Assembly (NCBI GenBank): GCA_036268235.1 | Contig: DATAUN010000071.1 | Coordinates: 1-46,983 of the forward strand | DNA length: 46,983 nucleotides | From: Gaiellaceae bacterium | GTDB lineage: Bacteria > Actinomycetota > Thermoleophilia > Gaiellales > Gaiellaceae | Reading direction: 5' to 3' | Part shown: piece by piece, positions 41,427-43,644 of the stretch | Layout of the letters: the number at the start of each line of letters is the position of its first letter | How positions within the stretch are numbered: the stretch's first letter is position 1 | Notes under the pieces: model-generated | What the model was told of the DNA's origin: nothing | The model's input: only the letters and a program-made list of their open reading frames with translations | Databases searched by the model: none | Made by a program: the position numbers and the translations under genes

Positions 41427-41960
41427 TCAGTGGGCGTGGCGCGCGCGGTACGCGCTCACCTTGGCCCGGTTGCCGCAGCTCTCCATCGAGCACCAGGCGC
41501 GCGAGCGGTTCTTCGCCGTGTCGAGAAACGCCCAGCGGCAGTCGTCGGCGCGGCAGGCCTTCATACGCTCCCAGGTCCCGTCGCTCATCGCACGCGCGAC
41601 GTCGGCGAGGATCTGCCCGACCGCGCCGCGAGCGCCGCCGACGCCGGGGACGAGACGCATCTCACAGTCGACGAACCGCAGCGCGAGCTTCGCACGGCAA
41701 ATCGCGTCGTCGAGCTCGGCGCCGGCGGGCGCGATGTCGACGGCGATCTCGTTCTGCTCCGCGAGCAGGTCGCGGAGTGCCTCGCGCACGCGCTTCGCCT
41801 CCTCGAGGTCGGCAGTGCTCACGCGCGAGCCGGGCTCCAGCAACCCCCGGTCGACGAGCCAGTCGCCGAGGGCGCGCGGGGTTTCGAGCGTCTCCTGGTA
41901 GGGACGCAGGTCAACCGTGTTCACGAAATCGAGGATCAATTGATGGTCGTTTGTCACCAT
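41427..41960 (-). CDS. CGNR zinc-finger protein (ABATE N-terminal domain plus zf-CGNR), putative stress-responsive regulator
   Basis: N-terminal LDFVNT. C-terminal C...C(RW)F.D....R.WCSM..CGNRAK..AYR motif present verbatim (CRWAFLDTAKNRSRAWCSMESCGNRAKVSAYRAR). Confidence 0.9.
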   Translation of the reverse strand: MVTNDHQLILDFVNTVDLRPYQETLETPRALGDWLVDRGLLEPGSRVSTADLEEAKRVREALRDLLAEQNEIAVDIAPAGAELDDAICRAKLALRFVDCEMRLVPGVGGARGAVGQILADVARAMSDGTWERMKACRADDCRWAFLDTAKNRSRAWCSMESCGNRAKVSAYRARHAH

Positions 41961-41976
41961 TAACCTTGCTTCAGGG

Positions 41977-41986
41977 GTTACGTAAC
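41977..41986. promoter_or_regulatory. Perfect 10-bp palindrome GTTACGTAAC in the AT-rich divergent region between the CGNR gene and 42035..42415
   Basis: Read directly. A GGTTAC half-site recurs at 42005-42010, and GGTTACGT recurs at 41382-41389 downstream of the CGNR gene. Confidence 0.3.
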
Positions 41987-42034
41987 TGCTATCATCGTAT
42001 CACTGGTTACACGAATGGCAAAGGGAGGCAGGAC

Positions 42035-42415
42035 ATGCAGGACTACGAGATGCGGCGAATGTTCACACAGGATCGGATCGAGACCCTTCGGCGCGCTGCA
42101 GCCCGGCCGCTCGTGGCCCCGGCTCGGCGCATCGAGACGTCCGAGATCGAGCTTCGGCTCTGCAAGCCCTCCGACGACCCCGCGCTCGACGACCTGGCCG
42201 AACTCTCCGAGGAGCCCGTGCCGGACGGCAGGCTCGTCGTCGCACTCGTCGACGGCCGCCTCGTCGCTGCACTGCCGCTCGCCGGCGGGTGCGCGCTGCG
42301 CGACCCGTTCGTGCGGACGGCGCACCTGACGAGGCTGCTCGAGCTCCGCGCCAAGCAGCTCCGTGAGCCGGTGACGCAGCCCCGCGCGCTGCGGCTGCTC
42401 CGGCGGCATGCGTAA
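42035..42415 (+). CDS. Hypothetical protein (126 aa), divergent from the CGNR gene
   Basis: GGGAGG RBS 7 nt before the ATG. Pattern LVVALVDGRLVAALPLAGGCALRDPF.RTAHL..LLELRAKQL resembles small conserved actinobacterial proteins of unknown function. Confidence 0.6.
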   Translation: MQDYEMRRMFTQDRIETLRRAAARPLVAPARRIETSEIELRLCKPSDDPALDDLAELSEEPVPDGRLVVALVDGRLVAALPLAGGCALRDPFVRTAHLTRLLELRAKQLREPVTQPRALRLLRRHA

Positions 42416-42445: not shown

Positions 42446-42709
42446 GTGCCCGAGACAATCACGGTCGACGTGCCCCGGCAGGGGATCGGCGACGAGCTGA
42501 CGACCGCGCTTGCGGCGCACGGGCTCGACGCCGAGGTGTTGGAGGAGGACGGCCGCTGTGCGCTCCGAATCCGGTTCGCCGCCAACGAGCTCGATCGCCT
42601 GCTCGACCACACCGTGCACGCGATCGAGCTCTACCTCTCCGATCGCATGCTGCCGCTCGTCGTGCAGCGCGCGAACGGCGGCGCGGTCGTGCGGCCGCCC
42701 GGAGACTAG
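42446..42709 (+). CDS. Hypothetical protein (87 aa)
   Basis: GTG start, high GC3, acidic. No motif recognised. Confidence 0.5.
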   Translation: MPETITVDVPRQGIGDELTTALAAHGLDAEVLEEDGRCALRIRFAANELDRLLDHTVHAIELYLSDRMLPLVVQRANGGAVVRPPGD

Positions 42710-43251
42710 AACAGCGAAAGCCCCGTGGAGGGGCTTTCGTCGATGGACCCAGGCGGGCTCGAACCGCCGACCTCCTGCGTGCCACGCAGGCGCTCTCCCA
42801 GCTGAGCTATGGGCCCCCGGAACCTCGCAAGTGTAGCCCCGAACTCATATTCATGAGCCCAGTTGATGAGCTTCTGCTGGTTGTTCCGTGACGGGGCCAA
42901 CCGAAGTTGCACGAGTGCACGGCCGACCGACATCTCGGGCGGAAGCAGATAGCACTGACGCAGCTCAGCGCAGTACGCAGCGATCACATCGATCTCGCCC
43001 TGCTTGTAATTGCGGTGGATCAACCCCTCCGGTCCGCGCCGACACCGACGCGTCCTGACCAGGACGACATCGCCGTGCTTCGCGGCCCACTTGCATTGAA
43101 CGCGCACGAGCTCCGGCCGCAAGTCGAGGATCAGGTCGTACCGCTCGTCGCCGAGCGGTTGGAACACTCCCAGGCCGTAGTGCAGCGCTTCGAAGACAAT
43201 TGCCTGCTCAGCAAGTACACCCTTCTGATCCGTCGTCAGCACCGACAACAA
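42706..43251 (-). CDS. PD-(D/E)XK endonuclease-like protein (group I intron-associated PDDEXK_5-like). The ORF continues in frame through tRNA-Ala.
   Basis: N-terminal TTDQKGVLAEQAIVFEALHYGLGVFQPLGDERYDLILD...LVRVQCK matches the G..AE...G..V..P.gd..yDLi.d...rvQvK pattern. Codon 146 starts exactly at tRNA nucleotide 1, and residues 146-181 (GPIAQLGERLRGTQEVGGSSPPGS...) are tRNA and terminator sequence. Sampled stretches are 52-63% GC. Confidence 0.55.
   Translation of the reverse strand: MLSVLTTDQKGVLAEQAIVFEALHYGLGVFQPLGDERYDLILDLRPELVRVQCKWAAKHGDVVLVRTRRCRRGPEGLIHRNYKQGEIDVIAAYCAELRQCYLLPPEMSVGRALVQLRLAPSRNNQQKLINWAHEYEFGATLARFRGPIAQLGERLRGTQEVGGSSPPGSIDESPSTGLSLF
42716..42738. terminator. 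Hairpin GAAAGCCCC-GTGGA-GGGGCTTTC (9-bp stem) between the 42446 gene and the tRNA 3' end. Bidirectional terminator candidate.
   Basis: Read directly. A GC-rich stem flanked by A/T runs in the stem base. Confidence 0.6.
42744..42816 (-). tRNA. tRNA-Ala (anticodon GGC), no encoded CCA
   Basis: The reverse complement GGGCCCATAGCTCAGCTGGGAGAGCGCCTGCGTGGCACGCAGGAGGTCGGCGGTTCGAGCCCGCCTGGGTCCA folds as a cloverleaf. It has a 7-bp acceptor stem with the G3:U70 Ala identity pair, D arm GCTC/GAGC, anticodon stem CCTGC/GCAGG with loop GTGGCAC, and a T arm GGCGG-TTCGAGC-CCGCC. Confidence 0.9.
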
Positions 43252-43287
43252 GGCTAGCGCCGCGACGAACGTCTGTCTGCTGGCTCT

Positions 43288-43644
43288 TTAAGCCGTGGCT
43301 GCTCCGACCGCTTCGTGCGGGACGTCGTCCCACAGCTCTTCGAGGCGGTAGTACTCGCGCGCGTCCGGAGTGAAGACGTGCAGGACGACGTCGATGTAGT
43401 CGGCGACGATCCAGCTCGCCTCCCGCTCGCCGTCGGCGCTCCGCGGGAGCAGGCCGTGATCGCGCTTCATCAGCGCGTGCACCTCGTCCCAGATCGACTT
43501 CGTCTGGCGCGGGTTGCCGCCCGTGGCCACGACGAAGTAGTCCGTGTAGGCACAGACGGGCTGCATGTCGAGGATGACGACGTCGCGGGCGAGCTTGTCC
43601 TGGGCAATTGCCGCGATTCGGCGTGCTTGTTCGAGAGGGCTCAA
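43288..43644 (-). CDS. rsfS: Ribosomal silencing factor RsfS (iojap)
   Basis: DVVILDMQPVCAYTDYFVVATGGNPRQTKSI and WIVADYIDVVLHVF. Follows nadD as usual. Confidence 0.9.
   Translation of the reverse strand: MSPLEQARRIAAIAQDKLARDVVILDMQPVCAYTDYFVVATGGNPRQTKSIWDEVHALMKRDHGLLPRSADGEREASWIVADYIDVVLHVFTPDAREYYRLEELWDDVPHEAVGAATA

Follow-up and report, generated by a model that had tools for sequence, protein, structure and literature searches.

The question raised by this locus is how a conserved protein gene can run, in sense and with no stop codon of its own, through an essential tRNA gene. The window is a stretch of 46,983 nucleotides from a Gaiellaceae bacterium (Thermoleophilia, Actinomycetota; assembly GCA_036268235.1, contig DATAUN010000071.1). 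On its minus strand, an open reading frame (ORF) for a nuclease of the PD-(D/E)XK type lies downstream of rsfS and stays open across the whole of tRNA-Ala(GGC). This ORF is probably an allele of a free-standing cassette of the homing-endonuclease type, about 450 bp in length, that, in Thermoleophilia, resides at one fixed position, with the stop codon of rsfS on one side and the −10 element of tRNA-Ala(GGC) on the other. Such a cassette would consist of a nuclease gene of the I-Ssp6803I family and, 5' of it, a short region holding a −10 element that belongs to the cassette. The frame continues over the −10 element of the host, TACACT (read as A-T-L), the leader and the tRNA to the first available stop. 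In one frame this is the TAG formed by tRNA U8-A9-G10; in the other two, the stop codon is found within the tRNA or beyond it.

An open reading frame through tRNA-Ala(GGC)

The reading frame ends on the following elements.

42744..42816, minus strand: tRNA-Ala(GGC), intact over 73 nt, with G3:U70 (ARAGORN; Rfam RF00005, 60.9 bits), read in sense by the ORF as GPIAQLGERLRGTQEVGGSSPPGS
42717..42737, minus strand: terminator-like hairpin AAAGCCCC-TCCAC-GGGGCTTT, 3' of the tRNA and also in the translated frame (sequence reading)
42706..42708, minus strand: TAG, the first in-frame stop of the ORF, 36 nt beyond the 3' end of the tRNA (sequence and ORF list)

The mechanical ORF list gives the frame as 42706..43251 on the minus strand, coding for 181 aa. 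The initial annotation had claimed that it remains in phase through the entire tRNA and stops only at 42706, and this was confirmed by the ORF list, ARAGORN, Rfam and the sequence itself. Read along the sequence, nucleotide 1 of the tRNA (42816) is the start of codon 146 (GGG), as had been stated, and the frame is open across the tRNA and the hairpin 42717..42737 until the TAG. The nuclease domain, which was said to fill the 145 residues up to the tRNA, ends earlier than that, the Pfam match finishing at residue 137 (F, 42841..42843). The real start is likely GTG 43242 rather than TTG 43251; at the aligned position, 83 of 113 homologous copies have ATG or GTG. On its own, an open stretch of 36 codons is not rare in DNA of about 65–70% GC (own estimate, about 0.4). 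The signal that departs from chance is the conservation of the ORF/tRNA arrangement.

Conservation of the arrangement

Species-representative genomes were scanned with a domain-only alignment, so that the tRNA could not bias the result. All 80 loci recovered, nearly all of them in Gaiellaceae/Thermoleophilia metagenome-assembled genomes (MAGs), have tRNA-Ala(GGC) on the same strand, 0–35 nt past the protein match. A protein database search returned 2602 homologues of the nuclease. The best 120 of these (62–84% identity) have ends derived from the tRNA in every case; 117 read through in the frame of the window and 3 end at 'GP*'. With an exhaustive search, the family amounts to 2801 members counted as 50%-identity cluster representatives. 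Among the best 150 of these 2801, at least 94 carry ends derived from tRNA-Ala, in all three frames, and most of the others are fragments.

A stop within the 8 codons preceding the tRNA was found in a single one of 113 intact copies. The frame ends at the TAG of tRNA U8-A9-G10 in 23 copies, at other stops within the tRNA in 14, and after the tRNA in 71, while 4 run off the contig. There are three junction frames because the spacer lengths differ. Homologues with a normal stop near residue 145 and no tRNA association might have been found; the opposite was the case, with 112 of 113 copies lacking the stop and 80 of 80 loci linked to the tRNA.

Of 160 related loci, most have rsfS upstream of the cassette. 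A few lineages carry the ORF-tRNA pair in the opposite orientation to rsfS, or at another position, yet the pair is kept together. It is inverted relative to obg-nadD-rsfS in loci L021, L043, L058, L060, L062, L063 and L078. In a single clade the inversion affects just rsfS, which lies between nadD and the nuclease ORF (L038, L044, L056, L061, L067, L069, L070, L075, L077 and L080, at about 2560–2916). Two of these loci, L044 and L070, are on two contigs of one MAG (MFD10043.bin.2.35) and have a seemingly identical ORF-tRNA locus, which may reflect duplication, strain mixture or binning redundancy.

The nuclease

The assignment of the protein to the PD-(D/E)XK endonucleases, made in the initial annotation, proved correct. 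It matches Pfam PF11645 (PDDEXK_5) with E = 1.5e-29 and 103.2 bits, against a cut-off of 26.1, over model positions 3–137 of 138. The domain profile matches one solved structure, that of I-Ssp6803I (PDB 2OST, E = 3e-18). Foldseek placed four chains of 2OST at ranks 1–4, with TM values up to 0.73, followed by Hjc resolvases and nuclease domains of SPARDA systems. In the AlphaFold2 (AF2) model, the pLDDT is about 85–97 in the nuclease core and below 50 in the tail, residues 149–181. Residues D39, Q52, C53 and K54 do not vary among the 22 homologues aligned, and D39...Q52-C53-K54 is aligned with YD...QVK of 2OST; the window copy keeps all invariant residues. As in I-Ssp6803I, these are presumably the catalytic residues. 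The PADLOC model 'HEase' also matches the nuclease (3e-15), and NCBIfam gave no match to it. By sequence, modelled fold and motif, the protein is a PD-(D/E)XK nuclease of the I-Ssp6803I type, for which cleavage of DNA is predicted.

In a 2012 review, the PD-(D/E)XK family of homing endonucleases is described as essentially cyanobacterial and intron-borne. Neither a group I nor a group II intron is present at the locus, where Rfam reports only the intact 73-nt tRNA and ARAGORN an uninterrupted one. An endonuclease encoded in an intron or an intein was ruled out as a candidate, since Rfam finds the tRNA alone.

Empty sites and limits of the insert

Metagenomes were scanned with the neighbouring RsfS protein, which yielded 80 loci with an RsfS 75–92% identical to that of the window. 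The cassette is present in 46, several of which are truncated or interrupted; 28 are empty and 6 are too short to judge. In the empty loci, rsfS is followed directly by the tRNA at a distance of 22–167 nt, or of 824 nt in one locus with other cargo. The closest RsfS relatives of the window (91–92% identity) are empty sites. When aligned, the occupied allele equals the empty allele plus one insert, made of a 5' region of about 45 nt and of the ORF up to ...gag ttc (E-F, residue 137). The right end of the insert coincides with the end of the Pfam model. The junction is identical across loci and reads rsfS stop / cassette / GGGGCTACACT. The parts of the occupied allele in the window are the following.

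43288..43644, minus strand: rsfS (ribosome silencing factor), the conserved left flank, its stop codon being the left edge of the insertion site (ORF list, empty-site alignment)
43243..43287, minus strand: cassette 5' region of about 45 nt, not in empty alleles, conserved in occupied ones, holding the −10-like TAGCCT at 43251..43256
42841..43242, minus strand: nuclease coding part derived from the cassette, GTG 43242 to F137 (42841..42843, ...EYEF), an I-Ssp6803I-type PD-(D/E)XK core
42817..42840, minus strand: host-derived stretch read in frame as GATLARFR (residues 138–145), with the −10-like TACACT at 42830..42835 and a 13-nt spacer/leader at 42817..42829; its GGGCTACACTG is also in empty sites

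Empty sites have GGGCTACACTG and a further 9–14 nt before the tRNA; in the shortest, the motif begins directly past the rsfS stop. A TAnnnT element is found 9–23 nt (mode 13) 5' of nucleotide 1 of the tRNA in 153 of 153 loci, occupied or empty, as TACACT, TAGACT, TACAAT or TAAACT. At 11–16 nt before the tRNA, it is present in 88% of the loci against 4% of shuffled sequences. This is the pattern of the actinobacterial −10 box, and the element is a putative promoter of the tRNA. As the insert ends with ...EYEF and the next 24 nt are host sequence, the cassette carries no stop codon of its own; its frame runs over the host tRNA promoter, the leader and the tRNA. On the cassette side, TAGCCT sits 8 nt before GTG 43242, and in 88 of 113 copies a TAnnnT precedes the aligned start codon (ATG or GTG) by 5–10 nt. 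It suggests that the cassette brings its own putative promoter, from which a leaderless or near-leaderless mRNA would begin at GTG 43242.

Other sequences were seen at the same position. In L159 (1508–2330), the cargo between the rsfS stop and GGGCTACACT is different, being an ORF read by eye as a LuxR-type helix-turn-helix (HTH) protein; the site is therefore a general insertion hot spot. In some of the loci classified as empty (L084/L156, L098/L099, L136, L143), the interval from the rsfS stop to the −10 of the tRNA holds 30–130 nt of strong inverted repeats, such as gaacctggttcggcggagccgaaccaggtt and ggtgtctgacacgacaggtgtcagacacc. Small palindromic elements might account for these stretches, as might footprints left by repair at the insertion point.

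Repeat searches upheld the earlier statement that neither an integrase nor a duplicate of the tRNA 3' end is visible in the window: the 3' 22-mer of the tRNA is unique there at up to 3 mismatches, and there are no flanking repeats. An integrative island targeting the tRNA was ruled out, as integrase, att-like repeat and terminal repeats are all missing and the neighbours are rsfS, nadD and obg.

Replacement and loss of alleles

The identity between ORFs is weakly correlated with that between the RsfS proteins of the same loci (Spearman 0.31), and pairs with RsfS 94–99% identical carry ORFs that are just 45–47% identical in amino acids. In the DNA profiles of such pairs, both flanks are 85–98% identical, with a sharp drop to about 50–60% from the start of the ORF to around tRNA nt 44–50. 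The divergence at 4-fold degenerate sites is 0.54–0.65 in the ORF against 0.05–0.2 in the adjacent rsfS. Because it is high in the one and low in the other, the alleles are old rather than fast-evolving. Over 94 pairs of moderately diverged ORFs the median dN/dS is 0.12; by this measure, the nuclease is under purifying selection.

Empty and occupied alleles have left flanks that are 93–99% identical. Across all loci, 11 copies are truncated or interrupted, and some empty sites retain the final bases of the ORF (..ttcgg) ahead of the −10 box. This pattern looks as would be expected of a homing-endonuclease cassette undergoing invasion, decay, loss and replacement. Of the readings offered at the outset, that of a selfish endonuclease lodged upstream of a tRNA gene is well supported by the presence and absence of the cassette, the replacement of alleles and the remnants, all at one fixed site.

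On the other side of the tRNA, the sequence is often unrelated between hosts with rsfS 92–99% identical (for example L081 and the window, or L145 and L153). The 3' side of the tRNA is therefore also a boundary of recombination or rearrangement.

A candidate target in the anticodon stem-loop

The divergent tract includes the 5' part of the tRNA gene, where one element was examined further.

42774..42790, minus strand: anticodon stem-loop DNA, tRNA nt 27–43, CCTGCGTGGCACGCAGG, a perfect 17-bp odd palindrome and candidate target of the nuclease

The palindrome is perfect in 145 of 151 alleles, which comprise 44 distinct 17-mers. It is composed via U33/A37, G34/C36 and a Watson-Crick pair between positions 32 and 38, and in the window its arms reach 13 nt, with 85% complementarity. 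Bacterial tRNA-Ala(GGC) is known to be tuned by a 32–38 pair. Nucleotides 32/38 (42778, 42784 in the window) are Watson-Crick paired in nearly all alleles, as C-G, A-U or G-C, and they co-vary.

Over 153 loci, 32 variants of the anticodon stem (5' strand) were counted, against 10 of the T stem and 6 of the acceptor stem. In pairs with RsfS at least 90% identical and ORFs less than 60% identical, tRNA positions 27–32 and 38–43 mismatch in 19–71% (most in 42–71%), the T stem in 10–29%, and the acceptor and D stems never. Pairs from close hosts share the anticodon stem in 72% of cases if their ORFs have 80% identity or more, and in 6% if the identity of the ORFs is less than 60%. Empty sites have fewer stem variants than occupied ones, 8 in 29 against 15 in 32 (permutation p = 0.0008), and the allele TTTGG-CTGGCAG-CCAAA is enriched among them (12/29 against 3/32, Fisher p = 0.006). 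That the anticodon stem differs with the ORF allele, and that the divergent tract ends at about tRNA nt 44–50, fits protection of the donor; linkage also explains it.

Dimeric or tetrameric PD-(D/E)XK enzymes favour palindromes. The target of I-Ssp6803I is the pseudo-palindromic anticodon region of a tRNA gene, and for these two reasons the anticodon palindrome is proposed as the target here. By this analogy, the nuclease may recognize the palindromic DNA of the anticodon stem-loop, and the linked stem variant may act as self-protection. The nuclease would produce a double-strand break in tRNA-Ala(GGC) alleles that lack the cassette or are non-cognate, likely at the palindromic stem-loop. Repair from a cassette-bearing donor would transfer the cassette and, along with it, the 5' half of the tRNA, amounting to intronless homing, and the linked anticodon-stem variant would confer immunity on the new copy. 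In a broader proposal, a homing nuclease and an essential tRNA gene are engaged in an arms race, in which each cassette has a resistant stem allele, the stem evolves fast by compensatory changes, and the output of nuclease is tied to tRNA processing and ribosome rescue. It is made tentatively, and we find it somewhat doubtful.

Expression of a gene without a stop codon

As no terminator separates the ORF from the tRNA, their co-transcription is plausible. The −10 element of the tRNA itself lies within the 3' end of the ORF. Transcription would proceed from the cassette promoter through the tRNA to the hairpin. Hairpins resembling that at 42717..42737 are found downstream of the tRNA in many related loci; the window hairpin was missed by a simple terminator scan. 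Since the stop lies in or after the tRNA in every junction type, a cut by RNase P at nucleotide 1 of the tRNA would deprive the nuclease mRNA of its stop. The read-through transcript would thus yield a stop-less mRNA and presumably low expression. The window sequence originates from soil metagenomes, and the RNA runs contain just a few words of it; one metatranscriptome contig from a relative joins rsfS directly to the tRNA, as in an empty site.

In Thermoleophilaceae/Solirubrobacterales relatives, tRNA-Ala(GGC) is followed within about 25 nt or less by a mini Phd/YefM-like gene (core of about 40 aa, VGAHEFRNRFGWYMERAAAGEE..VTRRGKP..). Examples are at 1322–1522 in L161, 3517–3699 in L051 and 3508–3654 in L076, and the frame is often open back into the tRNA. 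The nuclease, the tRNA and the Phd-like protein make up a three-part module in those relatives. A search with the Phd-like domain gave 341 database matches, nearly all of 41–74 aa. A fusion of nuclease and Phd-like domain through the tRNA was downgraded as a candidate, the Phd-like gene being mostly separate with its own start right after the tRNA. The fusion is regarded as mostly an effect of gene calling, because the protein is mostly called alone with its own ATG or GTG. In the window, no antitoxin gene of a type II toxin-antitoxin system (Phd/YefM) adjoins the nuclease.

Alternative explanations

The presence of the nuclease could be accounted for without homing if it served the host, in defence, in a restriction-like role or in repair, and resided in a variable hot spot where diversifying or balancing selection and ordinary recombination generate its diversity. 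A dN/dS of about 0.12 and the persistence across Thermoleophilia agree with such a role, as do the existence of a matching 'HEase' model in PADLOC, the other cargo accepted by the site (the LuxR-type ORF in L159 and the hairpin elements in some empty loci) and the fact that no very recent transfer between lineages was detected. We nevertheless regard this as quite unlikely: the window contains no partner gene such as a methylase or a sensor, 28 of 74 close relatives are without the cassette, remnants exist, the nearest relative with a solved structure is a genuine homing enzyme, and the co-varying palindromic stem of the tRNA would be left unexplained. Still, several observations weigh against the homing cassette. 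Ordinary homologous recombination at a variable locus could yield the replacement of alleles, and strong purifying selection with class-wide persistence would also fit a nuclease that benefits its host. In none of the pairs compared is the divergence of the ORF clearly below that of the flank, which leaves a very recent transfer between distant hosts undocumented. The co-variation of stem and ORF may come from physical linkage alone, and the variability of the stem was compared within tRNA-Ala(GGC) alone. The loci are phylogenetically non-independent, which makes the counts and p-values descriptive. As a scan for E. coli-type promoters gave none at the locus, the promoter calls rest on the conservation of TAnnnT. 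The metatranscriptome contigs show the mature tRNA ending at nucleotide 1 and one low-depth contig over 42981..43209, and no transcript spanning the ORF-tRNA junction was found among those examined. A further reading, a decaying pseudogene (as listed in the initial annotation) or an artefact of gene calling, with the stop lost in the window copy, carries next to no weight. Long open frames are indeed common at about 70% GC, but the stop-less arrangement is the norm of the family, the invariant residues are all kept and purifying selection is strong (dN/dS about 0.12); on these grounds the pseudogene is refuted.

The missing stop calls for its own explanation, whichever way the cassette spreads. 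Also proposed from the start, and complementary to homing, is a limiter of expression: RNase P or 3' processing would excise the tRNA and leave a non-stop mRNA, whose product would be tagged by tmRNA and degraded, so that protein would come just from unprocessed precursors. Every junction type places the stop inside or past the tRNA, and 1 of 113 intact copies has evolved one in the 8 codons before it. Regulation through a non-stop mRNA is known for ArfA (PMC10107115), and processing of transcripts has been proposed to damp the seg genes of phage T4. We rate such a limiter as rather unlikely, given that the lack of a stop could be neutral, the tail being harmless in a GC-rich frame, that the tRNA has its own putative promoter, and that the frame with the shortest tail (TAG at tRNA nt 8–10) is not preferred. 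If translation through the tRNA were instead selected, the tail could be functional or serve as a linker to a downstream domain. Spacers in occupied loci do favour 10, 13 and 16 nt, which correspond to frame 1 (87 of 113), where those of empty loci are unimodal around 13 nt; and in Thermoleophilaceae the ORF continues through the tRNA into the Phd/YefM-like mini-domain, with no canonical start between them in 2 of 3 DNA loci. This possibility is nonetheless very improbable. The tail is predicted to be disordered (pLDDT below 50), and all three frames are seen, with many copies ending after 3 codons of the tRNA. In most cases the Phd-like gene is annotated as a protein by itself, of 41–74 aa and with its own start (ATG or GTG), and phylogenetic inertia may explain the spacer pattern. 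The tail encoded by the tRNA is most likely a tolerated, disordered appendage.

Relation to known systems

I-Ssp6803I (2OST), from the group I intron of tRNA-fMet in Synechocystis, shares with the cassette nuclease the Pfam family PF11645, the match in sequence and fold and the D...QxK motif. It also resides in a tRNA transcription unit. The cassette differs in that it is not intronic but located on the 5' side of a tRNA-Ala(GGC) gene that is intact, belongs to Actinomycetota instead of cyanobacteria and has no stop of its own. Its removal from the tRNA precursor would be performed by RNase P and not by self-splicing, and its target is a candidate one.

The element behaves like the free-standing homing endonucleases of T4 rather than the intron-borne kind. 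The seg and mob homing endonuclease genes (HEGs) of T4-like phages are likewise intergenic cassettes between conserved genes, present or absent among relatives. In both cases the promoter of an essential downstream gene overlaps the nuclease ORF, here that of the tRNA. T4 SegB is located between tRNA genes and cuts there. Donors of seg and mob genes are protected by target polymorphism, with co-conversion of flanks, and the cassette pattern is compatible with this. The T4 enzymes have a GIY-YIG or HNH fold, are phage-borne and have normal stops; cleavage and biased inheritance have been demonstrated for them and are predicted for the cassette.

ArfA is similarly made from an mRNA that lacks a stop after RNA processing, with the protein level set through trans-translation; the same would apply to the cassette, although the processing of ArfA mRNA is not linked to a tRNA. 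Islands flanked by tRNA genes, which have an integrase and an att repeat of the tRNA 3' end, have in common with it the foreign-looking DNA beside a tRNA gene. Unlike them, the cassette is on the 5' side of the tRNA, at the promoter, without integrase or duplicate of the tRNA end, and is about 450 bp long.

Literature searches returned no description of such cassettes or of a link to tRNA-Ala(GGC). Numerous free-standing cassettes on the chromosomes of soil Actinomycetota extend the PD-(D/E)XK homing-endonuclease family. They represent a natural, conserved protein gene without a stop of its own, which relies for its termination on an essential tRNA gene of the same strand, and they offer a direct test of how translation, RNase P processing and trans-translation interact. 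Where tRNAs are masked first, annotation pipelines will truncate or miss these genes or label them pseudogenes. If the anticodon stem is indeed the target, dozens of natural pairs of nuclease and palindrome would form a specificity series for enzyme engineering, and the locus would be one of the rare examples of a tRNA sequence shaped by a selfish element.

Other features of the locus

The genes upstream of the nuclease ORF on the same strand are obg, nadD and rsfS, according to the ORF list. In 200-nt windows, the GC content is 0.60–0.645 in the nuclease ORF against about 0.68–0.75 in the flanks, and GC3 is 0.76 against 0.87 in rsfS. The foreign composition noted earlier thus holds in so far as the GC content is lower than in the flanks; stretches as low as 52% do not occur inside the ORF in windows of this size.

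A 13-nt direct repeat with 85% identity is present at 42873–42885 and 43276–43288 (AACAACCAGCAGA and AAGAGCCAGCAGA on the minus strand). One copy is directly past the rsfS stop at the left end of the cassette and the other is within the NNQQK codons of the ORF; the repeat is probably due to chance.

Beyond the tRNA, the plus-strand ORFs 42036..42415 and 42446..42709 converge on the tRNA terminator. The divergent intergenic region at 41930–42035 has a low GC content (0.525) and resembles an ordinary promoter region. It is flanked by a minus-strand gene, 41427..41960, read by eye as a CGNR zinc-finger protein, and by small plus-strand ORFs.

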